A DNA stretch of 64,000 nt from an uncultured Bacteroidota bacterium (GTDB lineage: Bacteria > Bacteroidota > Bacteroidia > JABEUT01), in contig CAIWVW010000143.1 in assembly GCA_903916255.1 (NCBI GenBank), forward strand, positions 12,589-76,588, written 5' to 3'. Of the stretch, positions 34,932 through 56,916 are shown one piece after another (positions within the stretch are counted from its first letter, which is position 1; each line of letters opens with the position of its first letter). The translations under genes and the position numbers were made by a program. Below the pieces are notes generated by a model. That model was not told where the DNA came from. It worked only from the letters and a program-made list of their open reading frames with translations, and did no database searches.

Positions 34932-35686
34932 CCAATCCTGAAAAGGTTATATACCGGTTTCATCACATAAATTACACCCAAAATAAAACCAAATAAAATG
35001 GTTTTTACAAACACGGGCATTTTGGCAATCACATTAATTTTATGATACAGATATGAAACATGCCTTGTGAGTATAAAAGCGCAAACTAAATTCTTTTGCT
35101 TTAAAAATTCGGGCCTGATAAAATCCATAATAATAACGATGCGCCGCTTGTCCGTATCGTTCCAGGCACCATGTTTGTATGCATCATTAAATATTATCCA
35201 CTTGCCTTCTTCCCAGTTTTTCTTTTCAGCATTCACAATAAGCCCGCAATCGGGGAGCTTACCGGGTATTTCAACGCCAAGATGGCAACGGAGCATCGCG
35301 TTGGTATCTCCGGTATGTTCCGCTAATGTAGAATGTGGCGCCAATTGACTGATTGAAAGTGAAACATAACCGGGAACTTGCTTTAGGTAAGCAGCCGTTT
35401 TAGGACACTTCTTTTTAAATTCATTGGAAAGTTTCAGGCCCCAAAAAAGGAAGACAATAACACTCCATCCATTATTAATATCGATGTTTTCATATACGGC
35501 CTTATTAGAAAGGAATTTACTATCCTTTTCCTTTACAAAAGAGGCAACCTCCCCTTTCAGTTCATCCCACTGATTTTCTATTTCAACAAGTGGTTGATAG
35601 TGCTTAGTATCGTAGAACCAAGGCTCATTTCCGGGATAGGGGCGCATGCTGGATGCATACCAAATATGGTTCTTATTCTCCGGCAT
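34928..35686 (-). CDS. Aspartyl/asparaginyl beta-hydroxylase-family Fe(II)/2OG oxygenase (LpxO/OlsC-like) with C-terminal membrane anchor
   Basis: 252 aa. HSTLAEHTGDTNAMLRCHLGVEIP...WEEGKWIIFNDAYKHGAWNDTDKRRIVIIMDF matches the Asp_Arg_Hydrox pattern. Hydrophobic C-terminal helix. Overlaps the sulfotransferase stop by 4 bp on the opposite strand. Confidence 0.65.
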   Translation of the reverse strand: MPENKNHIWYASSMRPYPGNEPWFYDTKHYQPLVEIENQWDELKGEVASFVKEKDSKFLSNKAVYENIDINNGWSVIVFLFWGLKLSNEFKKKCPKTAAYLKQVPGYVSLSISQLAPHSTLAEHTGDTNAMLRCHLGVEIPGKLPDCGLIVNAEKKNWEEGKWIIFNDAYKHGAWNDTDKRRIVIIMDFIRPEFLKQKNLVCAFILTRHVSYLYHKINVIAKMPVFVKTILFGFILGVIYVMKPVYNLFRIG

Positions 35687-35692: not shown

Positions 35693-36787
35693 TTATGCAG
35701 GATTCGGTTTAGCTTTCAGTACTTGCTCTTTTTCCGATTTTTCTTTCATGTAATTTTTCAGCTCGCCTGCTTCAGCCAGGTGAATGAGATTACTGTCTTT
35801 TTTGAGCAGTTTATAATACTTCCAGATAGGTGGATGGAAAGCGCACATATCCAAAAACATATAAAAAGGAGTCAGCTTTAAAGCGTATAACGGCGCGGCC
35901 CAGCGATAGCCCATACCAATGGCATCGGTCGGGTTTTTAATAGCATGCCAGTAGTGAGGGGGATTCCAAAGAATATCACCCGGTTTCAGGTCAGCTGAAT
36001 ATCCGTCGATATATTTATACAATTCATACGGAGGGCTGTAATCAGGGGCAAAGGGGTCGAATGGCAAACCGTTCTTACGGTTAGGAGCATTGCGGTAAAT
36101 ATTCCGAACCGGATTCGGGTCAATAACCATGGTATAATACTGGGGGTATAAAATCCAATTCTTTTCTCCCCACACCTGTATGAAAAGATTTGGCGGATTA
36201 GCATTGTGCAGAAAAGAGCCACCTCCCTTACCACCAATGAAAACCTGAAAACAATCGAAAAAAGAAAACTTGTTTATTTTATCATGCAGCCATTTATAAT
36301 CCACGTCCTTAATATGCTCGGGATGCTTATCCAGCAAAGGATAAAAACGAAAATATTTCCCGCCACCAGCCTGTATATTCTCAATAACTTCGCGCAAGGT
36401 GCTGGCTTCATAATTTTTCATATTTTCCTGTGTAGCCATAAGGGCCTCATCATCTCCATGAAGTTCCTTGAAATAATCCAGCGACCATTTTTTCACACAA
36501 TCCCAATCTTTGGCTGCGCCATCAAAAATTACCGGAATGCCTTTCTTTACATAATAATTCAGGAACTCTTCTTTGGTTAAATCAGAACGCCTTTCCATCG
36601 GAATAATTTTTCCTTCGCCGCTTGCTTTAAGGGTTTTTGTAAGGTTCTGATAAAATCTCCTCCTGCGTTTGCCAAGCACTTTGAAAACCCTGTCTCTGCC
36701 GAAAAAATGGTCCATAAACTGGTAAAACCCATATTCCAGCCGCTGACTTGCTTTAATGTTTCTTCTGAATGGAGTTGCTCTACTCAT
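35693..36787 (-). CDS. Cupin_8/JmjC-like oxygenase homologue, paralog P1. Metal motif HNA...H, with the carboxylate replaced by Ala.
   Basis: 364 aa. Cupin_8-type N-terminus (KKGIPVIFDGAAKDWDCVKKWSLDYFKELHGDDE). The codons cac-aat-gct (H-N-A) were read directly as the complement of 36200-36208. Distal His in YWHAIKN. Lys-rich C-terminal tail. Confidence 0.7.
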   Translation of the reverse strand: MSRATPFRRNIKASQRLEYGFYQFMDHFFGRDRVFKVLGKRRRRFYQNLTKTLKASGEGKIIPMERRSDLTKEEFLNYYVKKGIPVIFDGAAKDWDCVKKWSLDYFKELHGDDEALMATQENMKNYEASTLREVIENIQAGGGKYFRFYPLLDKHPEHIKDVDYKWLHDKINKFSFFDCFQVFIGGKGGGSFLHNANPPNLFIQVWGEKNWILYPQYYTMVIDPNPVRNIYRNAPNRKNGLPFDPFAPDYSPPYELYKYIDGYSADLKPGDILWNPPHYWHAIKNPTDAIGMGYRWAAPLYALKLTPFYMFLDMCAFHPPIWKYYKLLKKDSNLIHLAEAGELKNYMKEKSEKEQVLKAKPNPA

Positions 36788-36806: not shown

Positions 36807-37895
36807 TTAAACAGAACTAACTTCTAAGTTTTTAATTTTTTGCTGTTTTTCCTGTTCTTCCTTTTCTTTCAGATAGCCGTCCAACTTGCCCGATTCGGCC
36901 AAGCGAACAAGGTTAGTATCTTCAATATATAATTTGGCCGATTTGAATATAGATGGGTTCCTCACGAACAAGTCCAGGAAGGCATACAGGGGCGCTAATT
37001 TCAACGCGTATGGATATGCTACCCAACGATATCCCACACTAATGGAATCAGTTGTATTTTCTACCGTGTGCCACGAAAAATTCGGGTTAAATAGAATATC
37101 ACCGGGTTTCAAGTCGGTTTCCAGCCAGTTGATATATTGGTATTCGGGATAGGTTTCAAAATCGGGCTTAAACGGATTAAAAAGTTCATTGCCTTTCACA
37201 GCAGGGCTTCGGTATAAGTGTTTTGCCGGGTCGGGATTAAGAACCATTGTATAATATTTCGGGTAAATAATCCATTTTTTTTCGCCATATACCTGAACAA
37301 AAAGATTGCACTGATTTTCCATATGAATAGGCGTAACCGAATTCATGCCGCCAATAAATACTTGCCATGCCTCAAACCATGTGTAAGGGTTTCTGCGCTC
37401 CAGCAGCCATTTGTAATCGAAATCTTTAATGTGCTCGGGGTGCCTGAACAGCAATGGATAGAAACGGTAATACTTTCCGCCACCCGAACGGATATTATCG
37501 ATTACTTCGCCCAGCGTAGTTGTTTCATAAAGTTCCTTTAGCTTATGGTTGGTAAGCGCAATTACGTCATTCCCGTGAAGTTCTTTAAAATATTCGGGAG
37601 ACCATTTCTTTACACAATCCCAATCATTGGCAGCGCCTTCCATAACAACAGGAATTCCTTTGGCCCGATAGTGGTTTTTAAATTCTTCCAGGCTCAGGTT
37701 TTTTCTTCGTTCCACCTGTATTGCATTTCCGCGGCCATTTTTTATCAAGTCGGCCATTAATTTTTCACGGGCGGCTTTCCGGCGTTTTCCCAAAATCATG
37801 TTTACCCTGCCTTTACCCAAAAACTGGTCGAGAAACTGAAAGACTCCGTATTCGAAGCTTTTAGGCGTAATAATATTTTTTTTAGGGTCAATCAT
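36807..37895 (-). CDS. Cupin_8/JmjC-like Fe(II)/2OG oxygenase, paralog P2. Canonical HxE...H.
   Basis: 362 aa. The PIHMENQCNLF codons were confirmed in the DNA (about 37318-37340). Distal His in SWHTVEN. Lys-rich tail. Confidence 0.7.
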   Translation of the reverse strand: MIDPKKNIITPKSFEYGVFQFLDQFLGKGRVNMILGKRRKAAREKLMADLIKNGRGNAIQVERRKNLSLEEFKNHYRAKGIPVVMEGAANDWDCVKKWSPEYFKELHGNDVIALTNHKLKELYETTTLGEVIDNIRSGGGKYYRFYPLLFRHPEHIKDFDYKWLLERRNPYTWFEAWQVFIGGMNSVTPIHMENQCNLFVQVYGEKKWIIYPKYYTMVLNPDPAKHLYRSPAVKGNELFNPFKPDFETYPEYQYINWLETDLKPGDILFNPNFSWHTVENTTDSISVGYRWVAYPYALKLAPLYAFLDLFVRNPSIFKSAKLYIEDTNLVRLAESGKLDGYLKEKEEQEKQQKIKNLEVSSV

Positions 37896-37903: not shown

Positions 37904-38995
37904 CTATTTCATCGTTTCGGTTACCTTCACTTTAGGAATTACTATACGTCCTTCAGACTCTTTGCGGTATTTATCCAGTTTGCCCCGCTGGGCAATTAAA
38001 AGCACATTAATATCCTCTTTAAACAATTTAATAACCTTCCAAATGGGGGGTTTGGTTGAAACAAAATCGAGGAACATATAAAGCGGAGCGGTTCTAAACC
38101 CTACAAAAAGATTGAACCAGCGATAGCCCACACCTATCGAATTGCTGGTATTTACAACAGTATGCCAATAGAAGGTTGGGACCCACAATACATCGCCGGG
38201 TTTTAAAATAGTTTCGTAATGGTCGATATACTTGTATAATTCATAAGGTGCATCGTACTTGGGATTGAACGGATTAAATCCGCCACGCTCGGGTGTTACC
38301 TGCACGCTGCGGTAAGCAAAACGCACAGGCTTCGGGTCAAGTATAGAAGTATAATAGGGTGGGTATAAAATCCATTTCTTTTCACCGTAAGTTTGAACGA
38401 ATAAATTGCCGCGGTTTTCAATATGCAGGCCTGTTGTCGTATCCTTTCCGCCCATCATTACGCGGAACTCTTCTATCAGGGTATTTTTATTTCTTCTTTC
38501 GCGAAGCCAGCCGTAGTCAAAATCCTTTATATGTTCAGGATGCCTGCTAAGTAATGGATAAAAACGGTAATATTTTTTTCCGCCACCCTGAATATTATCC
38601 ATGATATCGGCAAGGGTCATTATTTCAAAGTTCTTTTTGTCTTTATCGTCCAGCATGGCCACTTCATCGGTTCCATGCAAATCTTTAAAATACTCGAAAG
38701 ACCATTTCTTTACACAATCCCAATCATTGGCAGCCCCTTCCATAATAACAGGGATGCCCTTTTTAAGGTAATTCTTACGAAAATCTTTTAATGAGAGGTC
38801 AGTCCTGCGTTCTATTTCAATAGCCTTTCCATCACCACTCTTTCGGAGTGTTTCTTGCAGCCGCTTATAGAAATTCTTTCTGCGACCACCTAAAAGCTTA
38901 ACCATACGTTCACGACCAAAGAATTGGTCAAGGACCTGATAAACGCCATATTCGAATCGCTGGCCAGGCTTAATATTTCTTTTGTAGGTTTCCAC
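37904..38995 (-). CDS. Cupin_8/JmjC-like Fe(II)/2OG oxygenase, paralog P3. Canonical HxE...H.
   Basis: 363 aa. GLHIENRGNLF. YWHTVVN. Confidence 0.7.
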   Translation of the reverse strand: METYKRNIKPGQRFEYGVYQVLDQFFGRERMVKLLGGRRKNFYKRLQETLRKSGDGKAIEIERRTDLSLKDFRKNYLKKGIPVIMEGAANDWDCVKKWSFEYFKDLHGTDEVAMLDDKDKKNFEIMTLADIMDNIQGGGKKYYRFYPLLSRHPEHIKDFDYGWLRERRNKNTLIEEFRVMMGGKDTTTGLHIENRGNLFVQTYGEKKWILYPPYYTSILDPKPVRFAYRSVQVTPERGGFNPFNPKYDAPYELYKYIDHYETILKPGDVLWVPTFYWHTVVNTSNSIGVGYRWFNLFVGFRTAPLYMFLDFVSTKPPIWKVIKLFKEDINVLLIAQRGKLDKYRKESEGRIVIPKVKVTETMK

Positions 38996-39132: not shown

Positions 39133-40464
39133 ATGAGGTTTTTAGCAAATATTATTTCGAAATTCTTCAAAAGCGAGGAAGACCGGAAAAGATTGTATAA
39201 AATAGTTATACCATCTTTCATCATACACTTTTTCGCAGCCATACTCGCACTTACCTTTATGTTCATAATGACGCGGAGCCTTGGTTCAAAGCGTTATGGG
39301 CTGTTTACATATTCTTTCAGCATTGTTTTTATCATTGTTAATCTTGCCACCTATGGTATTTGCGTATTGGCCGTAAGGGAAACCCCTTCTTTACTGGCCA
39401 AAGGTAAAAAGGCACTTTGGAAAGGGTTGCACAAATGGTCGGTTAAGTTATTGGTGCTGATTTCCATGGCATTTGCGTTAGCAGTTGCCACTTTTATCAC
39501 AATTTCAACATTTTACCTGCATATTCTGAAAGAAACAGCCTATACCATCCCCTTGCTTTTGGCATTGTTAACTGTACCGTTTTATGGGTTAATGAATTAC
39601 TATGCTTCTATCCTTCGCGGACAGCAAAAAATTGTGCTTTCCTTATTGCCCGACAATATTGTAAAACCGGTTATTTTCCTGTCATCCATCGGGTTAATAT
39701 ATGCCATTACCCGGAAATTTACGCTGCCCGATGCTATCTTAATGAATGCCCTGTCGTTTGCCGGAGCAGCCGTTTTCGCCATGGTAGTATTTTATAAAAC
39801 CACCCTGCTGAAAGATACCGTTGCAGAATATGATAAACCACATTGGAGAAACTCCCTGAAACCTTTCTTTTTGTTTATGATTATAACCAGCATCAATTCA
39901 CGGATGGATATTCTTATGCTGGGTTTTTTAAAGGAATCTTCGCAGGTTGGTATTTACAGCGTGGCGGATATGATAGGCTCAAAGGTGACTTTATTTTTAC
40001 TGATAATGAACCAGGTTACAGCAGCCTCCATAGCCCGGATGCACAGCATGGATGAAAAAGAGAAGTTGCAAGACTTGGTTACCAAAACCAGCCGCTGGGT
40101 ATTTATCATTACTTTGCCAGTATTCCTTTTTATTGTAGTTTTCCGCAAATGGATAATGGCCTACTTTGGCGCTGATTTCGACAGCGGGCAAACAGCTTTG
40201 CTTATTATAGCCAGCGGACAAATAATTAATATCGCGTTCGGGCCGGTGGGCAATTTTGCTTTGATGACGGGCAATCAGCGGTATCCTATTATTTTCACTT
40301 CCATTAATATCGTTATTAATCTAACCCTGAATCTTATTCTTACCCCTACGTTGGGTATAAACGGAACAGCCATTGCAACAACTTGTGCCATAGTTACATG
40401 GAACACCGGTATGTTTTTAACCATACGCAAGAAAACGGGTATTCGCACCTGGATTTTCGGATAG
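39133..40464 (+). CDS. MOP-superfamily flippase (Wzx/polysaccharide-biosynthesis-protein-like, 12-14 TM)
   Basis: 443 aa, entirely polytopic. Its length and topology fit Wzx/MATE-like exporters. Confidence 0.55.
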   Translation: MRFLANIISKFFKSEEDRKRLYKIVIPSFIIHFFAAILALTFMFIMTRSLGSKRYGLFTYSFSIVFIIVNLATYGICVLAVRETPSLLAKGKKALWKGLHKWSVKLLVLISMAFALAVATFITISTFYLHILKETAYTIPLLLALLTVPFYGLMNYYASILRGQQKIVLSLLPDNIVKPVIFLSSIGLIYAITRKFTLPDAILMNALSFAGAAVFAMVVFYKTTLLKDTVAEYDKPHWRNSLKPFFLFMIITSINSRMDILMLGFLKESSQVGIYSVADMIGSKVTLFLLIMNQVTAASIARMHSMDEKEKLQDLVTKTSRWVFIITLPVFLFIVVFRKWIMAYFGADFDSGQTALLIIASGQIINIAFGPVGNFALMTGNQRYPIIFTSINIVINLTLNLILTPTLGINGTAIATTCAIVTWNTGMFLTIRKKTGIRTWIFG

Positions 40465-40509: not shown

Positions 40510-41679
40510 TTGAAATCACTCAATTCAGGATTTTGTATTATGTTTGAATGGTTATTACTATTTCATCTTTTTCAACCTATGAGCGAAACACCTAATACAT
40601 ATCCTACTAAGCCTCTTACTGCAGCCGACATTGAGTATATTAAAACTATACCCATGATATTTATTTTAGGAAGGGAACGCTCGGGAACCTCATTGCTTCA
40701 GAACCTGCTCGATTCGCATCCCAATATTATAGGGCCGCCCGAATCAAAAATCATTGCAGTGCTTGCTCCTAAATTCGCCCCTATTAAAAGATGGACAGAA
40801 GCCAATATCCGCGAATTTGCCGAATTGCTATACATCGAACCTATGTTCACCAATTTCTGGCACTTGGATAAAGAACAACTTACAAAAAACCTTTTATTGG
40901 CCAAGGATAGCGCTACTTATGAACTCTTATGCAAGATAGTTTATTATCACCTTCGTAAAGACAAGGAAAAAATCATTCTTATTTCCGATAAAAACCCAAG
41001 TTATATTCTTCATATAAATACATTGCTGGATATATTTCCAGACACCAAGTTTGTACATATTATTCGGGAACCACGCGATAATATTTACAGCCAGATGAAG
41101 GCTTTCAACGCAAAGAATACCATTTTCAGTGCACAAAAGTGGTTGGGATTTAACCAGCTTGTCGAAAGAAAAAAGAAAAAGATGCCGGAAAAGTTTTACA
41201 CCATTATTTATGAAAATATGGTGACTGAAACAGAAGACATCATGAAAGGATTGTGTGCATTTTTAAAGGTTCCTTATAGCGAAGCTATGATTCAAAATGT
41301 TTTTCCGGAATGGCTCAGCGCCCATTTGGAACGTAAAGGCAATGTAGACAGGAAAAACATGGTTCATACCGGGTTATTGGCCCCCATCAACACATCAAAT
41401 GTAGGCAAGTGGAAAAATAAATTAAGCGCCTATGACCAGGCGGCAACAGAAGCCATAACAGCCGATTTCGCAAAAAAGACGTATGGATATGATATTTCGA
41501 TTGACCCGAATTCTAAAATCAAAATATCAGGATTTAAAATTTTAAAAGGCAAGTGTCTTTATTATCTCTGGCAGGCATTTACACAGGCCAGGTATAAATC
41601 GTTTGCGTTTAATTTAATGTATTCGAAAAGAAAACAAAAGAAGAAAGGGAAGGATTTACCTATGTGGGAATATTTTTAA
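40510..41679 (+). CDS. PAPS-dependent sulfotransferase. Cluster paralog 2.
   Basis: 389 aa. GRERSGTSLL and HIIREPRDNIYS motifs. About 45% identical to the 33840..34931 product over the core. Confidence 0.75.
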   Translation: MKSLNSGFCIMFEWLLLFHLFQPMSETPNTYPTKPLTAADIEYIKTIPMIFILGRERSGTSLLQNLLDSHPNIIGPPESKIIAVLAPKFAPIKRWTEANIREFAELLYIEPMFTNFWHLDKEQLTKNLLLAKDSATYELLCKIVYYHLRKDKEKIILISDKNPSYILHINTLLDIFPDTKFVHIIREPRDNIYSQMKAFNAKNTIFSAQKWLGFNQLVERKKKKMPEKFYTIIYENMVTETEDIMKGLCAFLKVPYSEAMIQNVFPEWLSAHLERKGNVDRKNMVHTGLLAPINTSNVGKWKNKLSAYDQAATEAITADFAKKTYGYDISIDPNSKIKISGFKILKGKCLYYLWQAFTQARYKSFAFNLMYSKRKQKKKGKDLPMWEYF

Positions 41680-41695: not shown

Positions 41696-42865
41696 TCATG
41701 TAAATTTTGTTTTGAGTTTCAAAAAACCTTTTTCAAAGAACTCATACGAAATAATTGCTGTGATGATTGTAAAAATAAGGGTGCTGGCATAAAGCACTAC
41801 GTTCATCTGCCATCCGGAAACTTCCCGTTTAAATATACTTTCCGTCATTTGAAGGGAGAGTATTCTCAATATCGGGTGATACATATATAATCCATACGAA
41901 ACCTTTCCCAGATAATTCATCCATTTATAATCAAGACTAAGTATGGAACGTGAATTAGTAGCCAGGTTAACGATTATTACCATGAAAAATACTGAATACA
42001 TTTCATAAAACACACTTGGAAAACCTTCTTTTGCAATAGGCTTTACCCCAATTCTGAGCAACAGTAAACTTATTGTTATTACATAAGTAACCCATTGAAC
42101 ATCCTTCCGGTAAATAAAATGGAGTATTTTATTTTTTTCAAAAATCACCCAATAAGCGCCAATTCCGCCTATGGCCATGCAACTGACGCGATATTGCATT
42201 ATTACCCCACGGGCAAAACGGAAAAGTGTATTGTGCAATTCTTTCCATGAAAAGAAATCATTACCCAGAAACAATGCGTTTCTTACAAATAGCACCAGTA
42301 CCACAACAGAAAGAAATATCCACAGATATTTTTTTGTAATTTTCAATACTATCGGCCAGCAGATATAAAAGAACTCCTCTACTCCTACTGACCATATCGG
42401 GCCAATGGTTCGCGGCAAACCTGAGGTGCTTCTTACAAATGGGCTGAGAAATAATAAAGTGGCAAAAAAGAAAGGCCAGAAATGCTTATATATATTGGAA
42501 GAGTAATCTTCGGTGAACCAACTTATATGGGGAAGCACAAAAAAACCGGCCATAACAATCAGAAAATAAAGCGGCCATATCCGGAGCGTTCTCCGGGTAT
42601 AGTATGATTTAAGATTTATGGTACCTGTAGCCTTTTTCTCTTTCAGCAATAAATAGGTAATAAGAAAGCCGCTGAGCACAAAAAACAAACTTACATCCAT
42701 ATTTCCTATAAGGCTGTAATATCTTAATGGCGCAAGTGTCTCCCTGTGATTAATGAACTTAATATCCTCAATATGGAAAATGATGATAATTAAGGAACCT
42801 ATAAACCTTAGCCCATCTAAATTTGGAAAATAATTTTTTCTTCGTGAATAGTCTTTCTCCATCAA
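41696..42865 (-). CDS. Membrane O-acyltransferase family 3. Cluster paralog 2.
   Basis: 389 aa. NLDGLRFIGSLIIIIFH. About 55% identical to the 32675..33811 product. Confidence 0.8.
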   Translation of the reverse strand: MMEKDYSRRKNYFPNLDGLRFIGSLIIIIFHIEDIKFINHRETLAPLRYYSLIGNMDVSLFFVLSGFLITYLLLKEKKATGTINLKSYYTRRTLRIWPLYFLIVMAGFFVLPHISWFTEDYSSNIYKHFWPFFFATLLFLSPFVRSTSGLPRTIGPIWSVGVEEFFYICWPIVLKITKKYLWIFLSVVVLVLFVRNALFLGNDFFSWKELHNTLFRFARGVIMQYRVSCMAIGGIGAYWVIFEKNKILHFIYRKDVQWVTYVITISLLLLRIGVKPIAKEGFPSVFYEMYSVFFMVIIVNLATNSRSILSLDYKWMNYLGKVSYGLYMYHPILRILSLQMTESIFKREVSGWQMNVVLYASTLIFTIITAIISYEFFEKGFLKLKTKFT

Positions 42866-43091: not shown

Positions 43092-44183
43092 TTATACCGC
43101 GGCCTTCACTTCAACCTTTTTCAGCTTATCCCGTTCCGCTTTTTCTTTGAGGTAATTATCCAACTGGCCCGATTCTGCCAAGTGTACAAGGTTGTTATCC
43201 TTTTTCAAAAGCTTCCACGATTTCCATATGGGCGGATGAATAGCCAGCATATCGAGCAGCATATATAATGGCGCTATTTTAAAAGCATAAAACGGGTCTG
43301 TCCAGCGGTATCCAACACCAATAGAATCGGAAGCATTTTTTACCGTATGCCAGTAAAACGGAGGATTCCAAAGTATGTCTCCCGGTTGAAGGCTTACGGA
43401 ATAGCCATCTATATATTTATACAACTCATTCGGCGGGCTATAATCCGGGCTGAACGGGTCGAAAGGCATATTATTTTTCCCTCTGAAAGGAGCGTTCCTA
43501 TATACATTTCGAACCGGGTCGGGGTCAACAATCATCGTATAATATTGAGAAATCAAAATCCAGTCTTTTTGCCCGTAAGTCTGAACAAAAAAGTTAGGCG
43601 GATTGGCATTATGAACATAAGAAATGCTGTCTTTCGGCCCGATAAAAACCTGAAATGCTTCAAATAGTGAAAACTTGGTCTTCCTGTCAAGCAACCATTG
43701 GTAATCAAAATCCTTAAGATGTTCAGGATGTCTGTCTAATAAAGGATAAAACCTGTAATATTTCTTCCCACCTCCTTTAATATTATCAATAACCTCCCTC
43801 AACGTAATTGCTTCGTAGTTATTCATGTTTTCCTGCGTTGCCATTACTATTTCATCATCGCCATGCAATTCTTTAAAATAATCAAGCGACCATTTCTTTA
43901 CGCAATCCCAATCTTTGGCGGCCCCTTCCAGCACCACAGGGATTCCTTTCCGCATGTAATGGTTCTTGAACTCTTTGAGGCTGATATCTTTTCTTCTTTC
44001 TATAGGATATATTTTACCCTCTCCGCTTTTCTTAAGGGTTTCCAGTAAGTTTCTGTAGAATTTTTTCCGGCGCTTGCCAAGCATTTTAAAAGTTCTTTCC
44101 CTTCCCAGAAAATGGTCGAGAAACTGGTAAATGCCATATTCAAAACGTTGGCTGTTTTTTATATTTCTTCTGAAGTCACTCAT
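43092..44183 (-). CDS. Cupin_8/JmjC-like oxygenase homologue, paralog P4. Motif HNA...H.
   Basis: 363 aa. YVHNANPPNFF. YWHTVKN. Closest to P1. Confidence 0.7.
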   Translation of the reverse strand: MSDFRRNIKNSQRFEYGIYQFLDHFLGRERTFKMLGKRRKKFYRNLLETLKKSGEGKIYPIERRKDISLKEFKNHYMRKGIPVVLEGAAKDWDCVKKWSLDYFKELHGDDEIVMATQENMNNYEAITLREVIDNIKGGGKKYYRFYPLLDRHPEHLKDFDYQWLLDRKTKFSLFEAFQVFIGPKDSISYVHNANPPNFFVQTYGQKDWILISQYYTMIVDPDPVRNVYRNAPFRGKNNMPFDPFSPDYSPPNELYKYIDGYSVSLQPGDILWNPPFYWHTVKNASDSIGVGYRWTDPFYAFKIAPLYMLLDMLAIHPPIWKSWKLLKKDNNLVHLAESGQLDNYLKEKAERDKLKKVEVKAAV

Positions 44184-44201: not shown

Positions 44202-45308
44202 TTACACTGCGGCTTTAGCTTTCAAGGTTTTTTCCTGCTTTTTAGCTTCATCTCTTTCGGCTTTCTTTTTCAAATAATCTTCCAACTGCCCTGTTTCGGC
44301 AAGATAAATTAAGTTGGCATCCTTGCGAACCATTTCACTACCCTTCCATATGGGAGGATTCCTTGCGCAGAAATCGAGCAACATATAAAGAGGGGCTATC
44401 TTTAAAGAATATAACGGAGGAATCCAGCGGAAACTTACGCCAATTGAATCAGTCGGGTTTTGCACACAATGCCAGTAATACGGCGGCAACCATAACACAT
44501 CACCCGGCCTTACTGTAGCTTCAAGGGTATCGATGTATTTGAAGAGTTCATATGGCCTTTCATAGTTGCCCGGCTTAAACGGGTCGAACGGGCCCTTATC
44601 CGTACGCATAGGTGCATGGCGGTAAACATTCTTAACCGGGTCGGGGTCCAAAACCATAGTATAATAGGGTGGATATAAAATCCATTTCTTTTCCCCATAT
44701 ACCTGTAAAAACATATTGCAGGAACAGGCATTATGCAAGCCCGTTGCGGTTCCCGCGCCGCCCATAAATACCTGGAATGCTTCGAACCAGTTGATACGGT
44801 TTTTGTGCTTCAGAAGCCAGTTATAATCAAACTCCTTAATATGCTCCGGATGCCTATCCAACAAAGGATAGAAGCGATAATACTTCCCCCCCCCCGAACG
44901 CATATTATCTATTACCTCCCCAAGCGTAATTGTTTCATAAGGATATCCTTCCTTTTGGAGTTGGACGAGCAAAATTTCATCATCGCCATGTAATTCTTTA
45001 AAATATTCAAATGACCAATCTTTTACACAGGCCCAATCTTTGGCAATACCTTCCATAACCACCGGAATACCCTTTCTTAAGTAATGGTCGCGGAATTCCT
45101 TTATACTTAAATCTTTACGTCTTTCTATTTGAACTGCCTTGCCGGGACCGCTTTGTTTAAGGGTTTCCGTCAGATTTTTATAGAACTTTCTGCGTCGGGT
45201 ACCGAATAACTTAAACATCCGCTGACGCCCAAAAAAATGGTCAAGAATTTGGTAAACACCATATTCCAACCGCTGGCTCCGCTTAATATTTCTTTTATAG
45301 TCACTCAT
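44202..45308 (-). CDS. Cupin_8/JmjC-like oxygenase homologue, paralog P5. Motif HNA...H.
   Basis: 368 aa. GLHNACSCNMF. YWHCVQN. Lys-rich tail. Confidence 0.7.
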   Translation of the reverse strand: MSDYKRNIKRSQRLEYGVYQILDHFFGRQRMFKLFGTRRRKFYKNLTETLKQSGPGKAVQIERRKDLSIKEFRDHYLRKGIPVVMEGIAKDWACVKDWSFEYFKELHGDDEILLVQLQKEGYPYETITLGEVIDNMRSGGGKYYRFYPLLDRHPEHIKEFDYNWLLKHKNRINWFEAFQVFMGGAGTATGLHNACSCNMFLQVYGEKKWILYPPYYTMVLDPDPVKNVYRHAPMRTDKGPFDPFKPGNYERPYELFKYIDTLEATVRPGDVLWLPPYYWHCVQNPTDSIGVSFRWIPPLYSLKIAPLYMLLDFCARNPPIWKGSEMVRKDANLIYLAETGQLEDYLKKKAERDEAKKQEKTLKAKAAV

Positions 45309-45403
45309 TATACTTCACTAAATAAACACAAATATATGGTAATTATTGCGAAAATACTGTGAGTTTCCATTTCAATATTGCATAAAGCTTTCGCAGAAAG
45401 TAT

Positions 45404-45411
45404 TAACTTTG
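45404..45411 (+). promoter_or_regulatory. Candidate Bacteroidota sigma-A -7 element (TAACTTTG matches TAnnTTTG) upstream of the FabH-ACP-FabH-SDR-GT2 operon. TTG at 45378-45380 could be the -33 element.
   Basis: The motif lies 19 bp upstream of the GTG start at 45430, in a 120-bp intergenic gap. Confidence 0.3.
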
Positions 45412-45429: not shown

Positions 45430-46434
45430 GTGGGTGCTTTCATTAAAGCTATAAGCTATTATTTGCCTGAAAAAATTCTGAATAATGAAGAATTGTCACG
45501 CATATTCCCCGAATATACTCCCGAAGAGATTTTCAGGCGCACAGGCGTGAAAGAAAGGCGAATAGCTGCTGACGATGAAATACCCTCTGATTCAGCAGTT
45601 ACAGCTACGGCCAAATTCTTTGAAGAACATCCGCATGTTAAGAAAGAAGATATAGATTTTCTTATTTTCACCACTGAAATGGTTGACAGGCGCGGCCCGG
45701 CAACAGCTTGCATTTTGCAAAATAAACTAGGGCTGCCAACTACCCTTGGAGCTATTGATATTCCTATGGGTTGTTCGGGTTTTATTTATGGATTAATGGT
45801 AGCTAATTCCCTTATTACAACAAAAGTCGCAAAAAATATATTATTTCTGACTGGAGATGCGGCTACGAAAGTAATCCACCCGAGAGACCATGAATTACGG
45901 ATGATTTTTGGCGATGCAATGGCAGTAACGCTTATCAGCGAAACTGAAAACAGCGGTATTGGGGGTTTTGTTTATGGCACCGATGGCTCCGGAGCTCCTA
46001 ATTTAATTGTGGAAGGATGTTGCGGAGCCGAGAAACCTACCCGCGAATGGCTTGATAAATATAGTGATGCAGGAGGAATGGCTTACGGCATATTTAGCAT
46101 GAAAGGGCCTGAAGTTTTAACTTTCTCATTACGCAAAGTACCACCCTTGGTAAAAGAAACGCTTGAAAAAGCTAACTTAACCATGGACGATATTGACCTT
46201 TTTGTATTCCATCAGGCAAGCGGATTTATCTTAGAGGTGTTGAGAAGGAAAATGAAAATTCCGAAAGAGAAATTTTTTACTAATCTTGAATTTATTGGTA
46301 ACACCGTAGCTGCAACAATTCCATTAGCTTTGTACGATGCGGTGAAAGAAGGCCGAGCAAAAAAAGGCGATAAGGTTTTGATTGCAGGATTCGGGATTGG
46401 CTATTCCTGGGGAGCAACAGTTATAACAATTTGA
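45430..46434 (+). CDS. FabH-family 3-oxoacyl-ACP synthase III-like condensing enzyme (copy 1), GTG start
   Basis: 334 aa. Cys-His-Asn triad in the contexts GCSGFIYG, FHQASG and GNTVAATIPLAL. Confidence 0.8.
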   Translation: MGAFIKAISYYLPEKILNNEELSRIFPEYTPEEIFRRTGVKERRIAADDEIPSDSAVTATAKFFEEHPHVKKEDIDFLIFTTEMVDRRGPATACILQNKLGLPTTLGAIDIPMGCSGFIYGLMVANSLITTKVAKNILFLTGDAATKVIHPRDHELRMIFGDAMAVTLISETENSGIGGFVYGTDGSGAPNLIVEGCCGAEKPTREWLDKYSDAGGMAYGIFSMKGPEVLTFSLRKVPPLVKETLEKANLTMDDIDLFVFHQASGFILEVLRRKMKIPKEKFFTNLEFIGNTVAATIPLALYDAVKEGRAKKGDKVLIAGFGIGYSWGATVITI

Positions 46435-46447
46435 TAATTTTAATTAT

Positions 46448-46690
46448 ATGGATATAAATACATTTATACAACAATTACAGGGAGAGTTTGAAGATATTCC
46501 TGCAGGCTTCCTGAAACCGGAAACAAAAATCAGCGATATTGAAGGCTGGGGCTCTATGCACGCCCTTATTGTTATTGCGCTTATAGATACCGAATATGGC
46601 GTTACCCTTAAAGGCGATGAGTTGAGAAAAGTATCTTCTGTACAAGAGCTTTATGATATGGTTGTCAATCTGAAAAATAATCCGGAATAA
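46448..46690 (+). CDS. Acyl carrier protein (discrete, cluster-associated)
   Basis: 80 aa. IEGWGSMHAL, with Ser at the phosphopantetheine-attachment position of the DSL-type motif. Confidence 0.75.
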   Translation: MDINTFIQQLQGEFEDIPAGFLKPETKISDIEGWGSMHALIVIALIDTEYGVTLKGDELRKVSSVQELYDMVVNLKNNPE

Positions 46691-46695
46691 AAGAA

Positions 46696-47751
46696 ATGGC
46701 TTCCTTTTCAATAAATAACGTAAGCATTAAAGGTATTGCAGGAGCTGTACCGAAAGAGGAATTATCCAATTGGGATTATACCCATATTACCGAACAAGAA
46801 AGGAAACTCCTGATTAAAACTACCGGTGTTGAAAAGCGCAGGATGGTTGGGAAATCTGGAATTACTACAACTGATTTATGCAAAGCAGCCGCTGAAAAAC
46901 TACTGGAAGCAACTAACACTTCCAAAGACGATATTCAGATTTTAATTTTTGTTTCCCAAACGCCCGATTACTTTCTGCCCGCCAGCAGCATAACATTGCA
47001 AAACAGGCTTGGCTTGCCCAAAACCTGCATGGCATTCGATATTAATTTAGGTTGCTCCGGATATGTATATGGACTGTCAGCTATATCATCATTAATAAGC
47101 GTAGGTAAATTCAAAAAAGCCCTTTTATTGTGCGGTGATATTTCTTCTGCCGGCCCTCCGGAGGAAGATAAAAGCGTATTCCCGCTTTTTGGAGATGGCG
47201 GCACTGCAACCCTTTTAGAATACGATGAAACCGCCGCTACCATGCATTTCAGCAACCAGAGTGACGGTTCAGGATATGAAGCCATAATAGTAAGGGAAGG
47301 TGGTATGCGCAAACCATTTACGGTGGATTCATTCACGATGGTGGAAAAGGAAAAAGGCATTTCCCGCGCCAGCCGCAATTTGGAATTAAACGGAATGGCG
47401 GTATTTAATTTTTCAGTTACAGAGGTACCTAAAAATATTGCGGAGTTCTTCAGCACGACCAATACAGGTCCTGATTCCTATGATTATTTTGTAATGCACC
47501 AGGCCAATTTACTGATGAATGAAACCATCCGGAAGAAAATGAAATTCCCTCCGGAAAAAGTGCCTTATACATTGCCTAAATTTGGCAACACCAGTTCTGC
47601 CTCCATACCACTAACAATAGTTTCCGAACTGCATGATAAAGTTGCAGGGGAAGTATCATGGCTGCTTTCAGGGTTTGGTGTTGGCTTATCATGGGCAACA
47701 GTTTCGCTGAAAACAAAAGATTTGATTTGCCCTGAAATTGTAGAATTATAG
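46696..47751 (+). CDS. FabH-family KAS III-like condensing enzyme (copy 2)
   Basis: 351 aa. GCSGYVYG, MHQANLLM and GNTSSASIPL triad contexts. Confidence 0.8.
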   Translation: MASFSINNVSIKGIAGAVPKEELSNWDYTHITEQERKLLIKTTGVEKRRMVGKSGITTTDLCKAAAEKLLEATNTSKDDIQILIFVSQTPDYFLPASSITLQNRLGLPKTCMAFDINLGCSGYVYGLSAISSLISVGKFKKALLLCGDISSAGPPEEDKSVFPLFGDGGTATLLEYDETAATMHFSNQSDGSGYEAIIVREGGMRKPFTVDSFTMVEKEKGISRASRNLELNGMAVFNFSVTEVPKNIAEFFSTTNTGPDSYDYFVMHQANLLMNETIRKKMKFPPEKVPYTLPKFGNTSSASIPLTIVSELHDKVAGEVSWLLSGFGVGLSWATVSLKTKDLICPEIVEL

Positions 47752-47756
47752 AAAAT

Positions 47757-48506
47757 ATGTCTACCCCTTTTCATCTTCATAATAAAACGGTACTTGTAAC
47801 GGGGGCCTCTTCCGGCATCGGAAAACAAGTTGCTATTTCTTGCAGCGCTATGGGCGCAAAAGTGGTAATTACGGGAAGGGACGAAAAACGGTTAGCGGAA
47901 ACATTTTCAGTATTGCAAGGTGAAGGACATTCCCAATTTGTTTGCGATTTGATGGATGAAACCCAACGCAATAATTTATTCGATACCATTCCTGCAATTG
48001 ACGGATATGTGCATTCGGCGGGAGTTGTAGCACCAGTTCCGGTGAAGTTTATTGCCGAAAAACATATACGTTACATTATGGGTGTAAATTTTGAATCGGC
48101 AGTGCTTTCAGTTGCGCGTTTACTAAAAAATAAAAAGTTGAACGATGCCGCCTCCTTAGTATTTTTTTCATCCATATCTGTAAGCTATCCCTATGCGGGA
48201 GGAGCTTTATACACAGCATCCAAAGGGGCAATAGAAGCCTACAGCAAAAATTTAGCGATTGAAATTCTCCCCAAGAAAATGCGCAGCAATGTGGTTGTTC
48301 CCGCAATGGTTAAAACGCCCTTGTACGAAGAAACTAAAAACCAATCGATGTACCGAAGCGCGGAAGAATATGAAAGTAAATATCCACTTGGATTAGGCAT
48401 GCCGGAAGATGTGGCGAATGCCTGCATCTATTTATTATCCGAAGCATCCAGATGGGTAACAGGCATTAATCTTACGCTGGACGGAGGCTTCAGCATTGTT
48501 AAATAG
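47757..48506 (+). CDS. Short-chain dehydrogenase/reductase (FabG-like 3-oxoacyl-ACP reductase)
   Basis: 249 aa. TGASSGIG cofactor motif. YTASKGAIEAY is the YxxxK active site. Confidence 0.8.
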   Translation: MSTPFHLHNKTVLVTGASSGIGKQVAISCSAMGAKVVITGRDEKRLAETFSVLQGEGHSQFVCDLMDETQRNNLFDTIPAIDGYVHSAGVVAPVPVKFIAEKHIRYIMGVNFESAVLSVARLLKNKKLNDAASLVFFSSISVSYPYAGGALYTASKGAIEAYSKNLAIEILPKKMRSNVVVPAMVKTPLYEETKNQSMYRSAEEYESKYPLGLGMPEDVANACIYLLSEASRWVTGINLTLDGGFSIVK

Positions 48507-49434
48507 AATGGGCGGAACAATCAAAGATATTTCAATAGTAGTTCCGGTATTTAATGCCGCTCCGGCACTTATTGCCCTACAGGCTGAAATAGATAAAGTA
48601 ATGGCCCTGGAAGGGATTACATACAAACTTATTTTGGTAGATGACGGCTCGGAAGATAAAAGTTGGGAAGTTATCAGGGCCATAAAAAACAATCATCCGG
48701 AAAAGGTTACTGCCATCCGGATGTCGAAAAACTACGGACAGCACAATGCCATTTTTGTTGGATTCCGCAATGCCAAAAGTAATTATATAATTACTATCGA
48801 TGATGACCTGCAGCATCCGCCCGATGAAATACCGCGACTAATTAAATGCGCCGAAGAAACAGATGCAGATTTAGTTTATGGTATATCAGGCGCATACAAA
48901 AGGTCGTTACTGCGCAAGTTTTTGCGATGGGGGTTTCGCCTTTTAAACCGCATGACAGCCGATGATAAAGAGGGTTCCGCTTTCCGCATTATAAAAAAAG
49001 GATTGGTAGATAAACTGGTAACGCACGACCAGGAATTTGTCTTTATAGATGAGCTCGCAAATTGGTACACCGAAAAAATAGAGTATATAAAAGTGCGTCA
49101 CGATAAATCACATGTAGATAAATCGCGTTATCCTTTTTCACGCTTAAGCAAGCTTTATTACAATCTTGTATTTGGCTACAATGCTTTCCTGTTAAGGTTA
49201 ATCACATTTTTAGGATGTACCTCATCCGCCATTTCCATCCTTATCGGGGTTTTCTTTATTATCAAAAAAATATTTTTCCATGTGCAGGTTGGTTTCACCG
49301 GCATTGTAGTAAGCATTACCTTCACCGGTGGTGTTATTTTATTAAGTATCGGCATCATTGGTGAATATATGCGCCGCATGTATAATATTATGAATGCCAA
49401 ACCGCAATCTTCTGTCAGCGAAATATTAGAGTAG
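48496..49434 (+). CDS. GT2 polyprenyl-phosphate glycosyltransferase (DPM1/GtrB/ArnC-like) with two C-terminal TM helices
   Basis: 312 aa. ISIVVPVFNA...LVDDGSEDKS...TIDDDLQHPP. C-terminal hydrophobic hairpin. Overlaps the SDR gene by 11 bp. Confidence 0.8.
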   Translation: MLNRMGGTIKDISIVVPVFNAAPALIALQAEIDKVMALEGITYKLILVDDGSEDKSWEVIRAIKNNHPEKVTAIRMSKNYGQHNAIFVGFRNAKSNYIITIDDDLQHPPDEIPRLIKCAEETDADLVYGISGAYKRSLLRKFLRWGFRLLNRMTADDKEGSAFRIIKKGLVDKLVTHDQEFVFIDELANWYTEKIEYIKVRHDKSHVDKSRYPFSRLSKLYYNLVFGYNAFLLRLITFLGCTSSAISILIGVFFIIKKIFFHVQVGFTGIVVSITFTGGVILLSIGIIGEYMRRMYNIMNAKPQSSVSEILE

Positions 49435-49436
49435 TT

Positions 49437-50129
49437 ATGATAGTTCGCAAATACGGAATTACGCTCCGGAGGCTAAAAGAAGAAGATATTGAACTATTGC
49501 GTGAAAAACGTAATTCGACAGCCATACAAAACACCATGTTTTACCGCGAGCATATCACTCCCGAAATGCAAAAAAAATGGTTTGATTCCATCAACAATAA
49601 GAATAACGGCTATTTTATTATTGAGTTTGAAGGCAAAAAAATAGGGCTTATTCACGGAAAAGATATAGACTTTGAAAAACGAACATGCGAGGGCGGAATT
49701 TTCATCTGGGATGAAAGCTACATTGGCGGATTTATCCCTTCACTGGCTTCGGTAATGATGAATGACTGGACCTTTTACATGATTAATTTCAAAGCAATTT
49801 ATGCCAAAATAATGCTGGATAATACTATTGCTATCAACTACAATAAATTGATGGGCTATCAGCTTTGCGAGCCACAAAATGAGGACAAAGGAGTGCAATG
49901 GATGATACTTACAAAAGAACGCTACGAAAAACACATGAAACTCTTACGCAAAGCTATAAAGGAGATTACCGGCGACGGTGAAATTCTGAAGTTGGAAGAT
50001 GGCGATGCATCAGACGATTTGGGCAAAGAAATAGACCTTTTTTATAAAGGGCTACCGCCCGATATACAGGAAAGGGGGGATACTTTGTTGCGCTGGGCTT
50101 ATGAAAAGAAGCTAAGAGGTAAGAACTAA
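49437..50129 (+). CDS. GNAT-like N-acyltransferase domain protein with an acidic C-terminal extension
   Basis: 230 aa, GNAT-like N-terminal half. Starts 2 bp after the GT2 stop. Confidence 0.4.
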   Translation: MIVRKYGITLRRLKEEDIELLREKRNSTAIQNTMFYREHITPEMQKKWFDSINNKNNGYFIIEFEGKKIGLIHGKDIDFEKRTCEGGIFIWDESYIGGFIPSLASVMMNDWTFYMINFKAIYAKIMLDNTIAINYNKLMGYQLCEPQNEDKGVQWMILTKERYEKHMKLLRKAIKEITGDGEILKLEDGDASDDLGKEIDLFYKGLPPDIQERGDTLLRWAYEKKLRGKN

Positions 50130-50176
50130 GAGCTCTTATTTCTTAGCTAATTACTACATTTGCAGTTTAACGACAA

Positions 50177-52264: not shown

Positions 52265-52270
52265 TTTTAT

Positions 52271-52834
52271 ATGAAATACACTTCAGTCGTTCTTTCTCTG
52301 GTTTCAATTTTTATTATTCTGCAAAATACATCCTGCATACGCGGAAATAAATACCCTAAGGAAACAAAAACGCTGGACAGCCTGCAAATACTCGTTGTTA
52401 AAGCAGATTCAGCAGTTAAAACAATCGACTCTGCAAAAATTGCAGGGTATGGAAATCATATTATGAATGATATGCAATTACTGCAAATGGCACATGTAGA
52501 TAGCATGAGCGGGGCCGCTGCGGATGTTTTCAGAAACTTCAATGAATTACGCTGGTCGCTCGCAACTATAGCCGGAAAAAGAGGTCCGTTATTAATCGAG
52601 TTAGGGAAATCGGAAAAACAATTAATTCACTTGAGCCATGACTTGCAACATAATCTGGTTCCTGCCGATAGTGCTCAATATTTCATTTCAAATGAAGCGA
52701 GAAAGGCGACCGAATTAGTGCAGGTATCAAACATGTCGATGCAGAGTATTGCCACGCAGGTTCCGCGCTACCAATACATTGCCCCGAAAGCTGATTCACT
52801 GATTTCACTGCTAAAGGACCATAAAAAGATTTAA
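52271..52834 (+). CDS. Hypothetical lipoprotein/secreted protein
   Basis: 187 aa. Signal peptide ending ...LQNTSC (lipobox-like). Confidence 0.4.
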   Translation: MKYTSVVLSLVSIFIILQNTSCIRGNKYPKETKTLDSLQILVVKADSAVKTIDSAKIAGYGNHIMNDMQLLQMAHVDSMSGAAADVFRNFNELRWSLATIAGKRGPLLIELGKSEKQLIHLSHDLQHNLVPADSAQYFISNEARKATELVQVSNMSMQSIATQVPRYQYIAPKADSLISLLKDHKKI

Positions 52835-52851
52835 TTTTTCTTATCAATAAA

Positions 52852-54675: not shown

Positions 54676-54694
54676 TATTTCGCTTTTAATCGCC

Positions 54695-56849: not shown

Positions 56850-56916
56850 AAAGGTTCTGATATTTTTAAGCAGAACCTTTTATTAACCTACAAACTTAAA
56901 ACCGAAACTATTTTAA

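Follow-up and report, generated by a model that had tools for sequence, protein, structure and literature searches.

A conserved six-gene operon of uncultured Bacteroidota joins a private acyl-building module to an ArnC-like glycosyltransferase and may serve the export of an acylated sugar

Introduction

In Flavobacterium psychrophilum, wfpC, wfpD, wfpE and wfpF encode a 3-ketoacyl-acyl carrier protein synthase III (KAS III, 333 aa), an acyl carrier protein (ACP, 76 aa), a second KAS III (350 aa, 33% identical to WfpC) and a ketoreductase (KR, 242 aa) (Cisar et al. 2019, PMC6519341). Together with the PglD-like wfpG, they have been proposed to make the 3,5-dihydroxyhexanoyl group on Qui2NAc4N of the O-antigen by transfer from 3,5-dihydroxyhexanoyl-ACP to the 4-amino group of UDP-Qui2NAc4N, a function that is itself a prediction only (PMC6519341). 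A second point of reference is given by the three-component systems GtrA/B/C, CsbB/GtcA/YfhO and the streptococcal PgfS/GtrB with a GT-C-fold glycosyltransferase (GT-C) (PMC11127046, PMC8035078, PMC12041528). Here we analysed a 64,000-nt stretch from an uncultured Bacteroidota bacterium (contig CAIWVW010000143.1; hereafter the window), in which an initial annotation had described two FabH-like enzymes (FabH1 and FabH2) flanking a private ACP and followed by a short-chain dehydrogenase/reductase (SDR) and a family 2 glycosyltransferase (GT2). These genes and a sixth, for a GCN5-related N-acetyltransferase (GNAT), form an operon at 45430-50129 that would build a hydroxylated acylated sugar and mobilise it for surface export, a reading to which we give about an even chance.

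The first four genes follow the wfpC-F order of KAS III, ACP, KAS III and KR, with products of 334, 80, 351 and 249 aa against 333, 76, 350 and 242 aa, and an acyltransferase gene lies downstream of the module in both loci; this comparison was made by gene order and size, with homology inferred through related Flavobacterium loci. The loci differ in the acyltransferase, a GNAT in the window and a PglD-type left-handed beta-helix protein in wfp, and the adjacent PglD and aminotransferase/dehydratase genes of the wfp type are missing from the window, where the GNAT replaces PglD. Also missing are the pglE/F-type genes, the PglC-type initiating transferase and wzy, while an ArnC-like GT2 lies within the operon and hydroxylases, sulfotransferases and a GT-C accompany it in the window or its relatives. 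An earlier comparison with the N-acyl groups of O-antigen amino sugars fits this gene order, these sizes and the DegT- and PglD-like neighbours of homologous modules, and the cassette is a variant of a known, itself only predicted, sugar N-acylation module.

Results

Structure and conservation of the operon

The five genes of the initial annotation lay at the positions given there, and the first three junctions span 13, 5 and 5 nt. Between SDR and GT2, the proposed 11-nt overlap holds with the TTG start at 48496 and becomes a 1-nt gap with the ATG at 48508, which is the start chosen by a gene caller on an identical contig. The cassette itself was real and not a chance arrangement, although the five-gene version was too short, as the GNAT gene begins 2 nt after GT2.

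We used the Bacteroidota-type promoter element TAnnTTTG to delimit the operon, since scans for sigma-70 promoters and terminators gave nothing above chance. This element was found 5-60 nt upstream of 17 of the 47 window genes versus 1.6 expected, with no enrichment over all intergenic regions of the window (77 observed versus 84 expected). As it precedes FabH1, is absent from every internal junction from FabH1 through GNAT and reappears 15 nt before the next gene, for a fused E1 dehydrogenase (copy at 50155), FabH1 to GNAT constitute one operon. Its enrichment upstream of genes makes TAnnTTTG usable as an operon-boundary marker for the source genome.

To survey related loci, we collected 36 non-redundant operons like that of the window (class A) from five protein look-ups and a one-genome-per-species scan, and about 18 further loci from a metagenome scan seeded with the neighbouring cupin genes. 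The six-gene core was kept in all 36 class A loci and in the further metagenome loci, with the order FabH1-ACP-FabH2-SDR-GT2-GNAT retained down to ~47% FabH1 identity and with GT2 and GNAT translationally adjacent in every locus, a recurrence far beyond chance. The carriers were nearly all uncultured Bacteroidota (Flavobacteriales including Crocinitomicaceae/Lishizhenia, Chitinophagales, Saprospiraceae and Sphingobacteriales), together with two metagenome-assembled genomes (MAGs) of Moraxellaceae. The genomes closest to the window were soil MAGs, and the window encodes C-terminal sorting domains of the type IX secretion system (T9SS).

A dedicated acyl-building module

FabH1 and FabH2, which are 35% identical, each carry the ACP_syn_III and ACP_syn_III_C domains of KAS III enzymes. 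The Cys-His-Asn triad reported earlier was intact in both, and its columns were invariant across 145 homologues aligned against E. coli FabH, the sequence of which was as expected at 21/21 checked positions, several of them with residue identities known from the literature. Their best solved relatives were the uncharacterised Burkholderia KAS III proteins 3gwa and 4efi (199-271 bits; 3gwa at 271 bits for FabH1), above E. coli FabH at 110-137 bits (137 for FabH1). On the FabH model TIGR00747 both proteins fell below the cut-off of 292.1 (235.6 for FabH1, 197.9 for FabH2), the generic KAS III model PRK09352 was passed by FabH1 only (256 versus 249 bits), and FabH2 failed all cut-offs. Since these scores stay below the FabH threshold and the genes sit with GT2 and GNAT and not with fabD/G/F, the earlier proposal of a dedicated, non-housekeeping KAS III/ACP system was borne out.

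These comparisons bear on two other uses of the enzymes. Housekeeping initiation of (branched-chain) fatty-acid synthesis, with the E1 as primer source, could call on the narrow pass of FabH1 on the generic model and on the adjacency of the fused E1 in the window lineage; we regard it as very improbable in view of the failure of both proteins on TIGR00747 and of FabH2 on every model, the high divergence of the ACP, the missing fabD, fabF, fabZ and fabI, the tight operon with GT2 and GNAT, and an E1 that is a separate unit not conserved with the cassette. Similarly, head-to-head condensation of the OleA type or resorcinol/pyrone condensation of the DarB/StlD type, which would lead to a hydrocarbon or dialkylresorcinol lipid and had been named as a precedent, would agree with two non-canonical KAS III enzymes and their weak Chal_sti_synt_N matches. 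However, X. campestris OleA structures scored only ~47 bits against 137-271 for FabH-type structures, the DarB/StlD models NF005293 and NF053539 gave 59 and 53 bits for FabH1 and 29 and 23 for FabH2 at cut-offs of 450 and 550, neither oleBCD nor darA is among the neighbours, the dedicated ACP and ketoreductase indicate elongation, and the homologues reside in sugar-acylation loci. We therefore discarded the comparison and hold such chemistry to be highly improbable.

The 80-aa reading frame alone scored below the Pfam PP-binding cut-off (15.8 versus 20.8 bits), and a profile of 18 orthologues matched solved ACPs, including 2lml (E 1e-5) and AcpM, at E values of 1e-5 to 1e-3. Ser36 was invariant within W-(G/S)-S-M and aligned to the phosphopantetheine (Ppant) serine of the solved proteins, in support of its identification as an ACP with a predicted phosphopantetheinyl serine, if a highly divergent one. 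The SDR carries TGASSGIG at residues 15-22 and Y152xxxK156 and resembles FabG.

In a neighbour-joining tree, the KAS homologues formed two clades, one of FabH1 and one of FabH2, and both contained class A sequences and sequences from the loci of cultured Flavobacterium, Pedobacter and Mucilaginibacter (class B). In polysaccharide loci of Flavobacterium, homologous modules have DegT and PglD-like genes as neighbours, and the class B locus of F. johnsoniae CI04, a polysaccharide locus that includes a cassette for sugar N-acylation, reads DegT-ACP-KAS-Rieske oxygenase-KR-KAS-PglD-like acyltransferase-GT2-GT2-GT4. As FabH1 and FabH2 group with these DegT/PglD-linked counterparts, the four-gene module is shared with sugar N-acylation loci. 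At the E. coli F87 and L142 positions, class A FabH1 proteins have G/A/S and P/A, respectively (Gly at F87 in the window), against L and Y in class B, so that class A enzymes seem to have a roomier primer pocket. A Rieske non-haem oxygenase was found inside the acyl module of the Moraxellaceae class A locus (L053:8876-9913) and of Flavobacterium class B loci (L056:8163-9263), a placement that suggests acyl-chain oxidation to be a recurrent theme entrusted to different oxygenase families.

From acyl-ACP to a lipid-linked sugar

By sequence, the nearest solved relatives of the GNAT were SpeG enzymes (E 4e-9), and its top NCBIfam match was PseH. An AlphaFold2 (AF2) model (predicted local distance difference test, pLDDT, 95.5) matched SpeG and PseH equally, at a TM score of ~0.8 on the target, and had a helical C-terminal extension of ~70 aa unique to this protein. 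SpeG and PseH are both amine N-acyltransferases, and for this reason the fold cannot tell a sugar from a polyamine acceptor; we propose that the GNAT is an acyl-ACP-dependent N-acyltransferase.

The GT2 matched ArnC over its full length (NF007986, E 7e-50; PDB 9bhc, residues 8-310, 146 bits) and GtrB from end to end at 122 bits, confirming its earlier classification as GtrB/ArnC-like. It combines a GT-A domain with the DxD-containing motif IDDDLQHPP and a C-terminal pair of transmembrane helices (~238-256 and ~270-288), the features of polyprenyl-phosphate glycosyltransferases of the ArnC/GtrB/DPMS kind, and its score below the ArnC equivalog cut-off (170 versus 529) means that it is not ArnC itself. 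Characterised ArnC-family enzymes accept N-acylated amino sugars (PMC12690121). Genes for DegT lie inside the class A clusters of both Moraxellaceae loci and of at least six marine Bacteroidota loci. Since a search of all 64 kb returned no DegT homologue, genes outside the window would have to supply the amino sugar. The sugar N-acylation context of class B, the DegT genes in clusters, the ArnC-like GT2 and the adjacency of GT2 and GNAT favour a sugar acceptor, and loading of an acylated sugar onto polyprenyl phosphate, as first suggested from the GT2, is the best-supported reading.

Conserved hydroxylases, sulfotransferases and flippases

All neighbours of the 36 class A loci were clustered to count partner genes. 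Asp_Arg_Hydrox proteins occurred in 24/36 loci and sulfotransferases in 23/36, each in one to three copies; the window encodes one of the former and two of the latter, ST1 and ST2, both with a hydrophobic C-terminal tail (Table 1). OlsC and LpxO, the nearest matches of the window hydroxylase, are acyl 2-hydroxylases.

The OlsC match raises the possibility of a membrane aminolipid, in which the GNAT would N-acylate ornithine, glycine/serine or a polyamine with 3-hydroxyacyl-ACP in the manner of OlsB, the AspH-type enzyme would 2-hydroxylate the product, the sulfotransferases would sulfate it, and the GT2 might glycosylate it or be unrelated. With an ornithine-lipid hydroxylase as top match, SpeG among the nearest sequence and fold matches to the GNAT, an open FabH1 pocket and no sugar aminotransferase in most loci, this explanation has several points in its favour. 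The polyprenyl-phosphate GT2 is nevertheless strictly co-conserved, and GT-C and flippase genes often are, several loci have DegT, the module is homologous to sugar N-acylation cassettes, and an OlsA-type O-acyltransferase is missing, which leaves an aminolipid product rather unlikely in our view.

A Wzx-like flippase gene, a candidate for moving the lipid-linked sugar, was present in the window and its relatives, its place being taken elsewhere by an MsbA/PglK-like ABC exporter overlapping DegT (L125) or by LPG_synthase_TM (L053). Such non-orthologous replacement is as expected if a lipid-linked sugar must cross the membrane. The same flippase, the two Acyl_transf_3 genes of the window and the residence of the homologous module in O-antigen-type loci would also suit a classical O-antigen or capsule repeat unit, with an N-acyl UDP-sugar entering a Wzx/Wzy polysaccharide and the GT2 acting as an ordinary polysaccharide glycosyltransferase. 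We consider this unlikely but worth keeping in view: the window cluster and the class A loci have no initiating phosphoglycosyltransferase, Wzy, chain-length regulator or GT1/GT4 stack, the GT2 is of the ArnC/GtrB type that moves a monosaccharide to undecaprenyl phosphate, and the conserved partner is a GT-C.

A GT-C with tetratricopeptide repeats in related loci

In 21 of the 36 class A loci the operon is adjacent to a gene for a GT-C of ~650-870 aa with C-terminal tetratricopeptide repeats (TPR), 9-11 N-terminal transmembrane helices and a first loop in which a DD pair is invariant. One member passes the Pfam PMT model, homologues carry PMT_2 and TMTC_DUF1736, and the Joint Genome Institute (JGI) labels homologues as protein O-mannosyltransferases. 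In the Moraxellaceae locus, the genes are for DUF2079 and for a PMT-like GT-C that lacks TPR. Of the three components of such glycosylation systems, the window holds the GT2 and the Wzx-like flippase, and the conserved GT-C was seen in relatives only; a homologue search found no conserved GT-C, PglD or Rieske protein within the 64 kb. The only GT-C of the window is the product of a GT87-family (polyprenyl-phosphate-sugar-dependent) gene at 1474-2640, 43 kb from the operon, which we rejected as the partner, there being no counterpart near related clusters. An RmlD-like reductase gene adjoins it (496-2640 for the pair, minus strand). Eleven further window reading frames scanned outside the cluster included no gene for synthesis of 3'-phosphoadenosine 5'-phosphosulfate (PAPS).

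Beside the GT-C, small reading frames with signal peptides (~130 aa) were noted in L005, L015, L022, L032 and L052, one family being rich in Pro/Thr/Ser, and very large CHU_C/T9SS adhesin-like proteins lie beside the cluster (L005:17042-20998 and similar). These flanking proteins hint at a protein acceptor and are possible glycosylation targets. In the window, T9SS cargo with Por_Secre_tail domains is encoded at 4171-6465, 15173-16279 and 55173-58104 (a C10 peptidase with inhibitor prodomain, BNR and PKD), and two of these cargo genes come immediately after the cluster, in the opposite orientation.

Modification of a peptide or protein would follow if the GNAT lipidated a ribosomally synthesised and post-translationally modified peptide (of the goadvionin/selidamide type) or a protein, with JmjC and AspH enzymes hydroxylating, sulfotransferases sulfating and the GT-C/TPR protein glycosylating it. 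Protein hydroxylation is the best-known activity of the JmjC and AspH families, the TPR domain resembles those of TMTC and OGT, and small secreted Ser/Thr/Pro-rich and large T9SS adhesin-like proteins flank many loci. Against it, no small precursor gene was shared across the loci compared, the hydroxylases and sulfotransferases are cytoplasmic or at the inner leaflet, and the AspH protein is nearest to lipid hydroxylases, and we think this explanation improbable.

JmjC/Cupin_8 paralogs with a halogenase-like motif

Five JmjC/Cupin_8 paralogs (Cup1 to Cup5) are encoded upstream of the operon, Cup4 and Cup5 being transcribed divergently from FabH1 (Table 1). They were closest to JMJD5, FIH and JMJD7, and the H321-x-D323 of JMJD5 aligned to H-N-A in Cup1, Cup4 and Cup5 and to H-M/I-E in Cup2 and Cup3, while the distal His and the Asn and Lys that bind 2-oxoglutarate (2OG) were conserved in all five. 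The H-N-A substitution was kept in orthologues. In an alignment of 140 sequences, comprising the five paralogs and 135 full-length family representatives that came from searching 1.84 billion proteins exhaustively, the third motif position was A in 84, G in 15, S/T/N/V in 9, E in 19 and D in 8; about 80% of these subfamily sequences were non-acidic there, with Asn, Lys and the distal His retained.

The metagenome scan was run with a narrow cupin alignment. Of the recovered loci whose length allowed a verdict, roughly half contained the FabH operon, typically with the cupins between GNAT and the sulfotransferase/AspH genes. Elsewhere the cupins pair with other GT-C-like membrane proteins, either Alg9-like GT22 or a ~545-aa family. 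The latter, with 9-12 transmembrane helices, a C-terminal domain and no Pfam match, repeatedly stood directly upstream of HxA cupins (L003:14640-18214, L103, L104, L151, L008:1199-2860), and Alg9-like GT22 took its place in other contexts (L098:7572-9137).

At the level of the motif, Cup1, Cup4 and Cup5 show the HxA/G...H of Fe/2OG halogenases, several of which act on acyl groups bound to carrier proteins. The motif is no proof of halogenation, as human AspH and FIH D201G hydroxylate without a carboxylate ligand, and to our knowledge no JmjC halogenase has been described. Literature searches likewise yielded no JmjC-type halogenase and no bacterial chlorosulfolipid genes. A comparative-genomics paper by Iyer et al. 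describes dioxygenase-sulfotransferase neighbourhoods and no JmjC halogenase. It is speculative, and on present evidence unlikely, that the locus makes a sulfated and halogenated acyl chain on a surface decoration or lipid-linked glycoconjugate. The chain would be assembled on the private ACP, the HxA/G cupins Cup1, Cup4 and Cup5 would chlorinate it as a JmjC/Cupin_8-type family of Fe/2OG halogenases not recognised before, the HxE paralogs and the OlsC-like enzyme would hydroxylate it, and the two sulfotransferases would then sulfate it. Were it true, the system would be a bacterial counterpart of chlorosulfolipid chemistry by an ArnC-like/GT-C route. The large JmjC subfamily without the carboxylate ligand supplies candidate halogenases or atypical oxygenases.

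The E1 gene and its unit

The fused E1 had been suggested to supply branched-chain starters. It follows GNAT only in close relatives (L001, L010, L013, L088, L090 and L094), is separated in L004 and is absent from L003, L005, L006 and the rest. Having its own promoter element and not being conserved with the cassette, it was rejected as a member of the system, and the suggested role fell with it. The E1 gene heads a four-gene unit (50177-55168) with a TAnnTTTG element of its own, which also encodes a predicted lipoprotein of 187 aa without a family, a secreted TPR protein of 607 aa and a small GNAT2, and which was syntenic only in close relatives.

Table 1 Features of the operon, its surroundings and the GT-C/TPR genes of related loci (window coordinates unless a locus is given)
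Feature	Position	Strand	Remarks
AT3a	32675..33811	-	Acyl_transf_3 membrane O-acyltransferase
ST1	33840..34931	+	sulfotransferase; RSGTT PAPS loop; weak NoeE match
Hydroxylase	34928..35686	-	Asp_Arg_Hydrox; OlsC 111 bits, LpxO 81 bits; C-terminal transmembrane anchor
Cup1	35693..36787	-	JmjC/Cupin_8; H-N-A...H
Cup2	36807..37895	-	JmjC/Cupin_8; canonical H-M-E...H
Cup3	37904..38995	-	JmjC/Cupin_8; canonical H-I-E...H
Flippase	39133..40464	+	Wzx-like (Polysacc_synt/MatE); candidate flippase for lipid-linked sugar
ST2	40510..41679	+	sulfotransferase; Sulfotransfer_3; RSGTS PAPS loop; basic and hydrophobic C-terminal tail
AT3b	41696..42865	-	Acyl_transf_3 membrane O-acyltransferase
Cup4	43092..44183	-	JmjC/Cupin_8; H-N-A...H
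Cup5	44202..45308	-	JmjC/Cupin_8, 2OG-oxygenase-like; H-N-A...H; divergent from FabH1
Mirror promoter element	45329-45336	-	21 nt upstream of Cup5
Promoter element TAACTTTG	45404..45411	+	Bacteroidota-type -7 element; 19 nt upstream of FabH1
FabH1	45430..46434	+	334 aa; KAS III-like condensing enzyme; triad C115/H261/N291
ACP	46448..46690	+	80 aa; dedicated; predicted Ppant Ser36 within GWGSM motif
FabH2	46696..47751	+	351 aa; second KAS III-like enzyme; triad C120/H268/N298
SDR	47757..48506	+	249 aa; FabG-like ketoreductase
GT2	48496..49434	+	312 aa; ArnC/GtrB-type polyprenyl-phosphate glycosyltransferase; DDD 102-104; two C-terminal transmembrane helices
GNAT	49437..50129	+	230 aa; Acetyltransf_3; SpeG/PseH-like; sixth operon gene
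Fused E1	50177-52264		alpha/beta dehydrogenase; own TAnnTTTG at 50155
GT-C/TPR	L022:7947-9959		example; 18 other loci besides the three listed
GT-C/TPR	L005:7927-9891		example
GT-C/TPR	L006:7458-10001		example

Discussion

The best reading of these data is a three-component extracytoplasmic glycosylation system whose sugar would carry a custom hydroxylated, probably sulfated, acyl group. What the analysis shows directly is which genes are present, their catalytic motifs, how the operon is built, how far it is conserved and which genes accompany it; from this we infer each chemical step, and with it the GNAT donor, the nature of the sugar, the acyl chain length, the sequence of tailoring reactions and the acceptor. 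FabH1 would condense an acyl-CoA primer with malonyl on the private ACP, the SDR would reduce the 3-keto group, and FabH2 would add a second C2 unit that the SDR reduces again. Since no dehydratase or enoyl reductase is present, the hydroxyls would be retained, giving a 3-hydroxy- or 3,5-dihydroxy-acyl-ACP. The GNAT would transfer this group from the ACP to the amine of a nucleotide-activated amino sugar, and the ArnC-like GT2 would move the N-acyl sugar onto undecaprenyl phosphate at the inner membrane face, where membrane-tethered OlsC/LpxO-like hydroxylases, JmjC cupins and PAPS-dependent sulfotransferases may oxidise and sulfate it further. The flippase, Wzx-like in the window, would then carry the lipid-linked sugar across the membrane, and a GT-C, TMTC/PMT-like with TPR in most relatives and not encoded in the window, would hand it to an acceptor in the periplasm or at the surface, for which a secreted protein or a glycan is plausible.

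Several observations weigh against this scheme. Within the 64-kb window there is neither an aminotransferase nor a sugar dehydratase nor a member of the conserved GT-C family, and most Bacteroidota loci have no DegT, so that an amine is a putative acceptor. The GNAT is as close to the polyamine enzyme SpeG as to the sugar enzyme PseH, and its acyl-ACP donor is a proposed one. The small residues at the F87 and L142 positions would admit an acyl chain that may exceed C6. As for the GT-C/TPR protein, a search with its AF2 model (pLDDT 90) gave TPR matches only, and a profile of its transmembrane domain had no match among PDB sequences. Finally, organisms that have been grown in culture and characterised chemically contribute no member of the cluster.

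The work defines a widespread, uncharacterised envelope-modification cluster of uncultured Bacteroidota from soil, freshwater and marine settings and of a few Moraxellaceae. Three subjects usually treated separately meet in this cluster, namely a small fatty-acid synthase of its own, three-component glycosylation by way of a lipid carrier, and tailoring by oxidation and sulfation. The cluster offers testable roles for bacterial TMTC-like GT-C/TPR enzymes, for which the findings suggest no donor sugar. If the acyl-sugar reaches T9SS surface proteins or lipopolysaccharide (LPS), recognition by phages and predators and the surface charge of abundant environmental Bacteroidota would be affected.

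Literature searches returned no characterised cluster of this composition, and the known systems share parts of its logic. Like ArnA/ArnC/ArnT, which add Ara4N to lipid A, Francisella FlmF2/NaxD/FlmK and Bordetella LgmABC, the proposed pathway would use an ArnC-family GT2 to place an N-acylated amino sugar on undecaprenyl phosphate, from which, after flipping, a GT-C transfers the sugar to an envelope acceptor. It differs in the N-acyl group, where a purpose-built hydroxyacyl from a private ACP would replace formyl or acetyl, in the lack of a deacylase, in the presence of sulfotransferases and oxygenases, and in a GT-C partner that is TMTC/PMT-like with TPR and not ArnT-like. The proposed combination of polyprenyl-phosphate GT2, flippase and GT-C would follow the logic of the three-component systems, with a flippase that is interchangeable among related loci (Wzx, ABC exporter or LPG_synthase_TM); whereas known systems of this kind transfer plain sugars, acyl-building and tailoring genes are embedded here. 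The GT-C of the relatives shares with TMTC1-4 and PMT a multi-pass GT-C domain, an acidic motif in the first loop and, as in TMTC, C-terminal TPR, but it is bacterial, its donor would not be Dol-P-Man, and its fold assignment relies on sequence.

The HxA/G metal motif of the cupins recalls the halogenases SyrB2, CmaB, HctB and CurA Hal, of which HctB acts on hexanoyl-ACP as a chlorinating enzyme, and the window genes likewise adjoin a private ACP and genes for building a short acyl chain. Those enzymes are PhyH/TauD-like, whereas the window cupins are JmjC/Cupin_8 proteins resembling JMJD5 and FIH. A likeness of logic only can be drawn to the Nod-factor pathway (NodE/NodF, NodA, NodC, NodH and NodL), which also combines a private ketosynthase and ACP with an N-acyltransferase, a GT2, a sulfotransferase and an O-acyltransferase, and to whose NoeE the window sulfotransferases match weakly. 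Most of the steps are non-homologous, NodE being of the KAS I/II type, NodA not a GNAT and NodC a processive chitin synthase.

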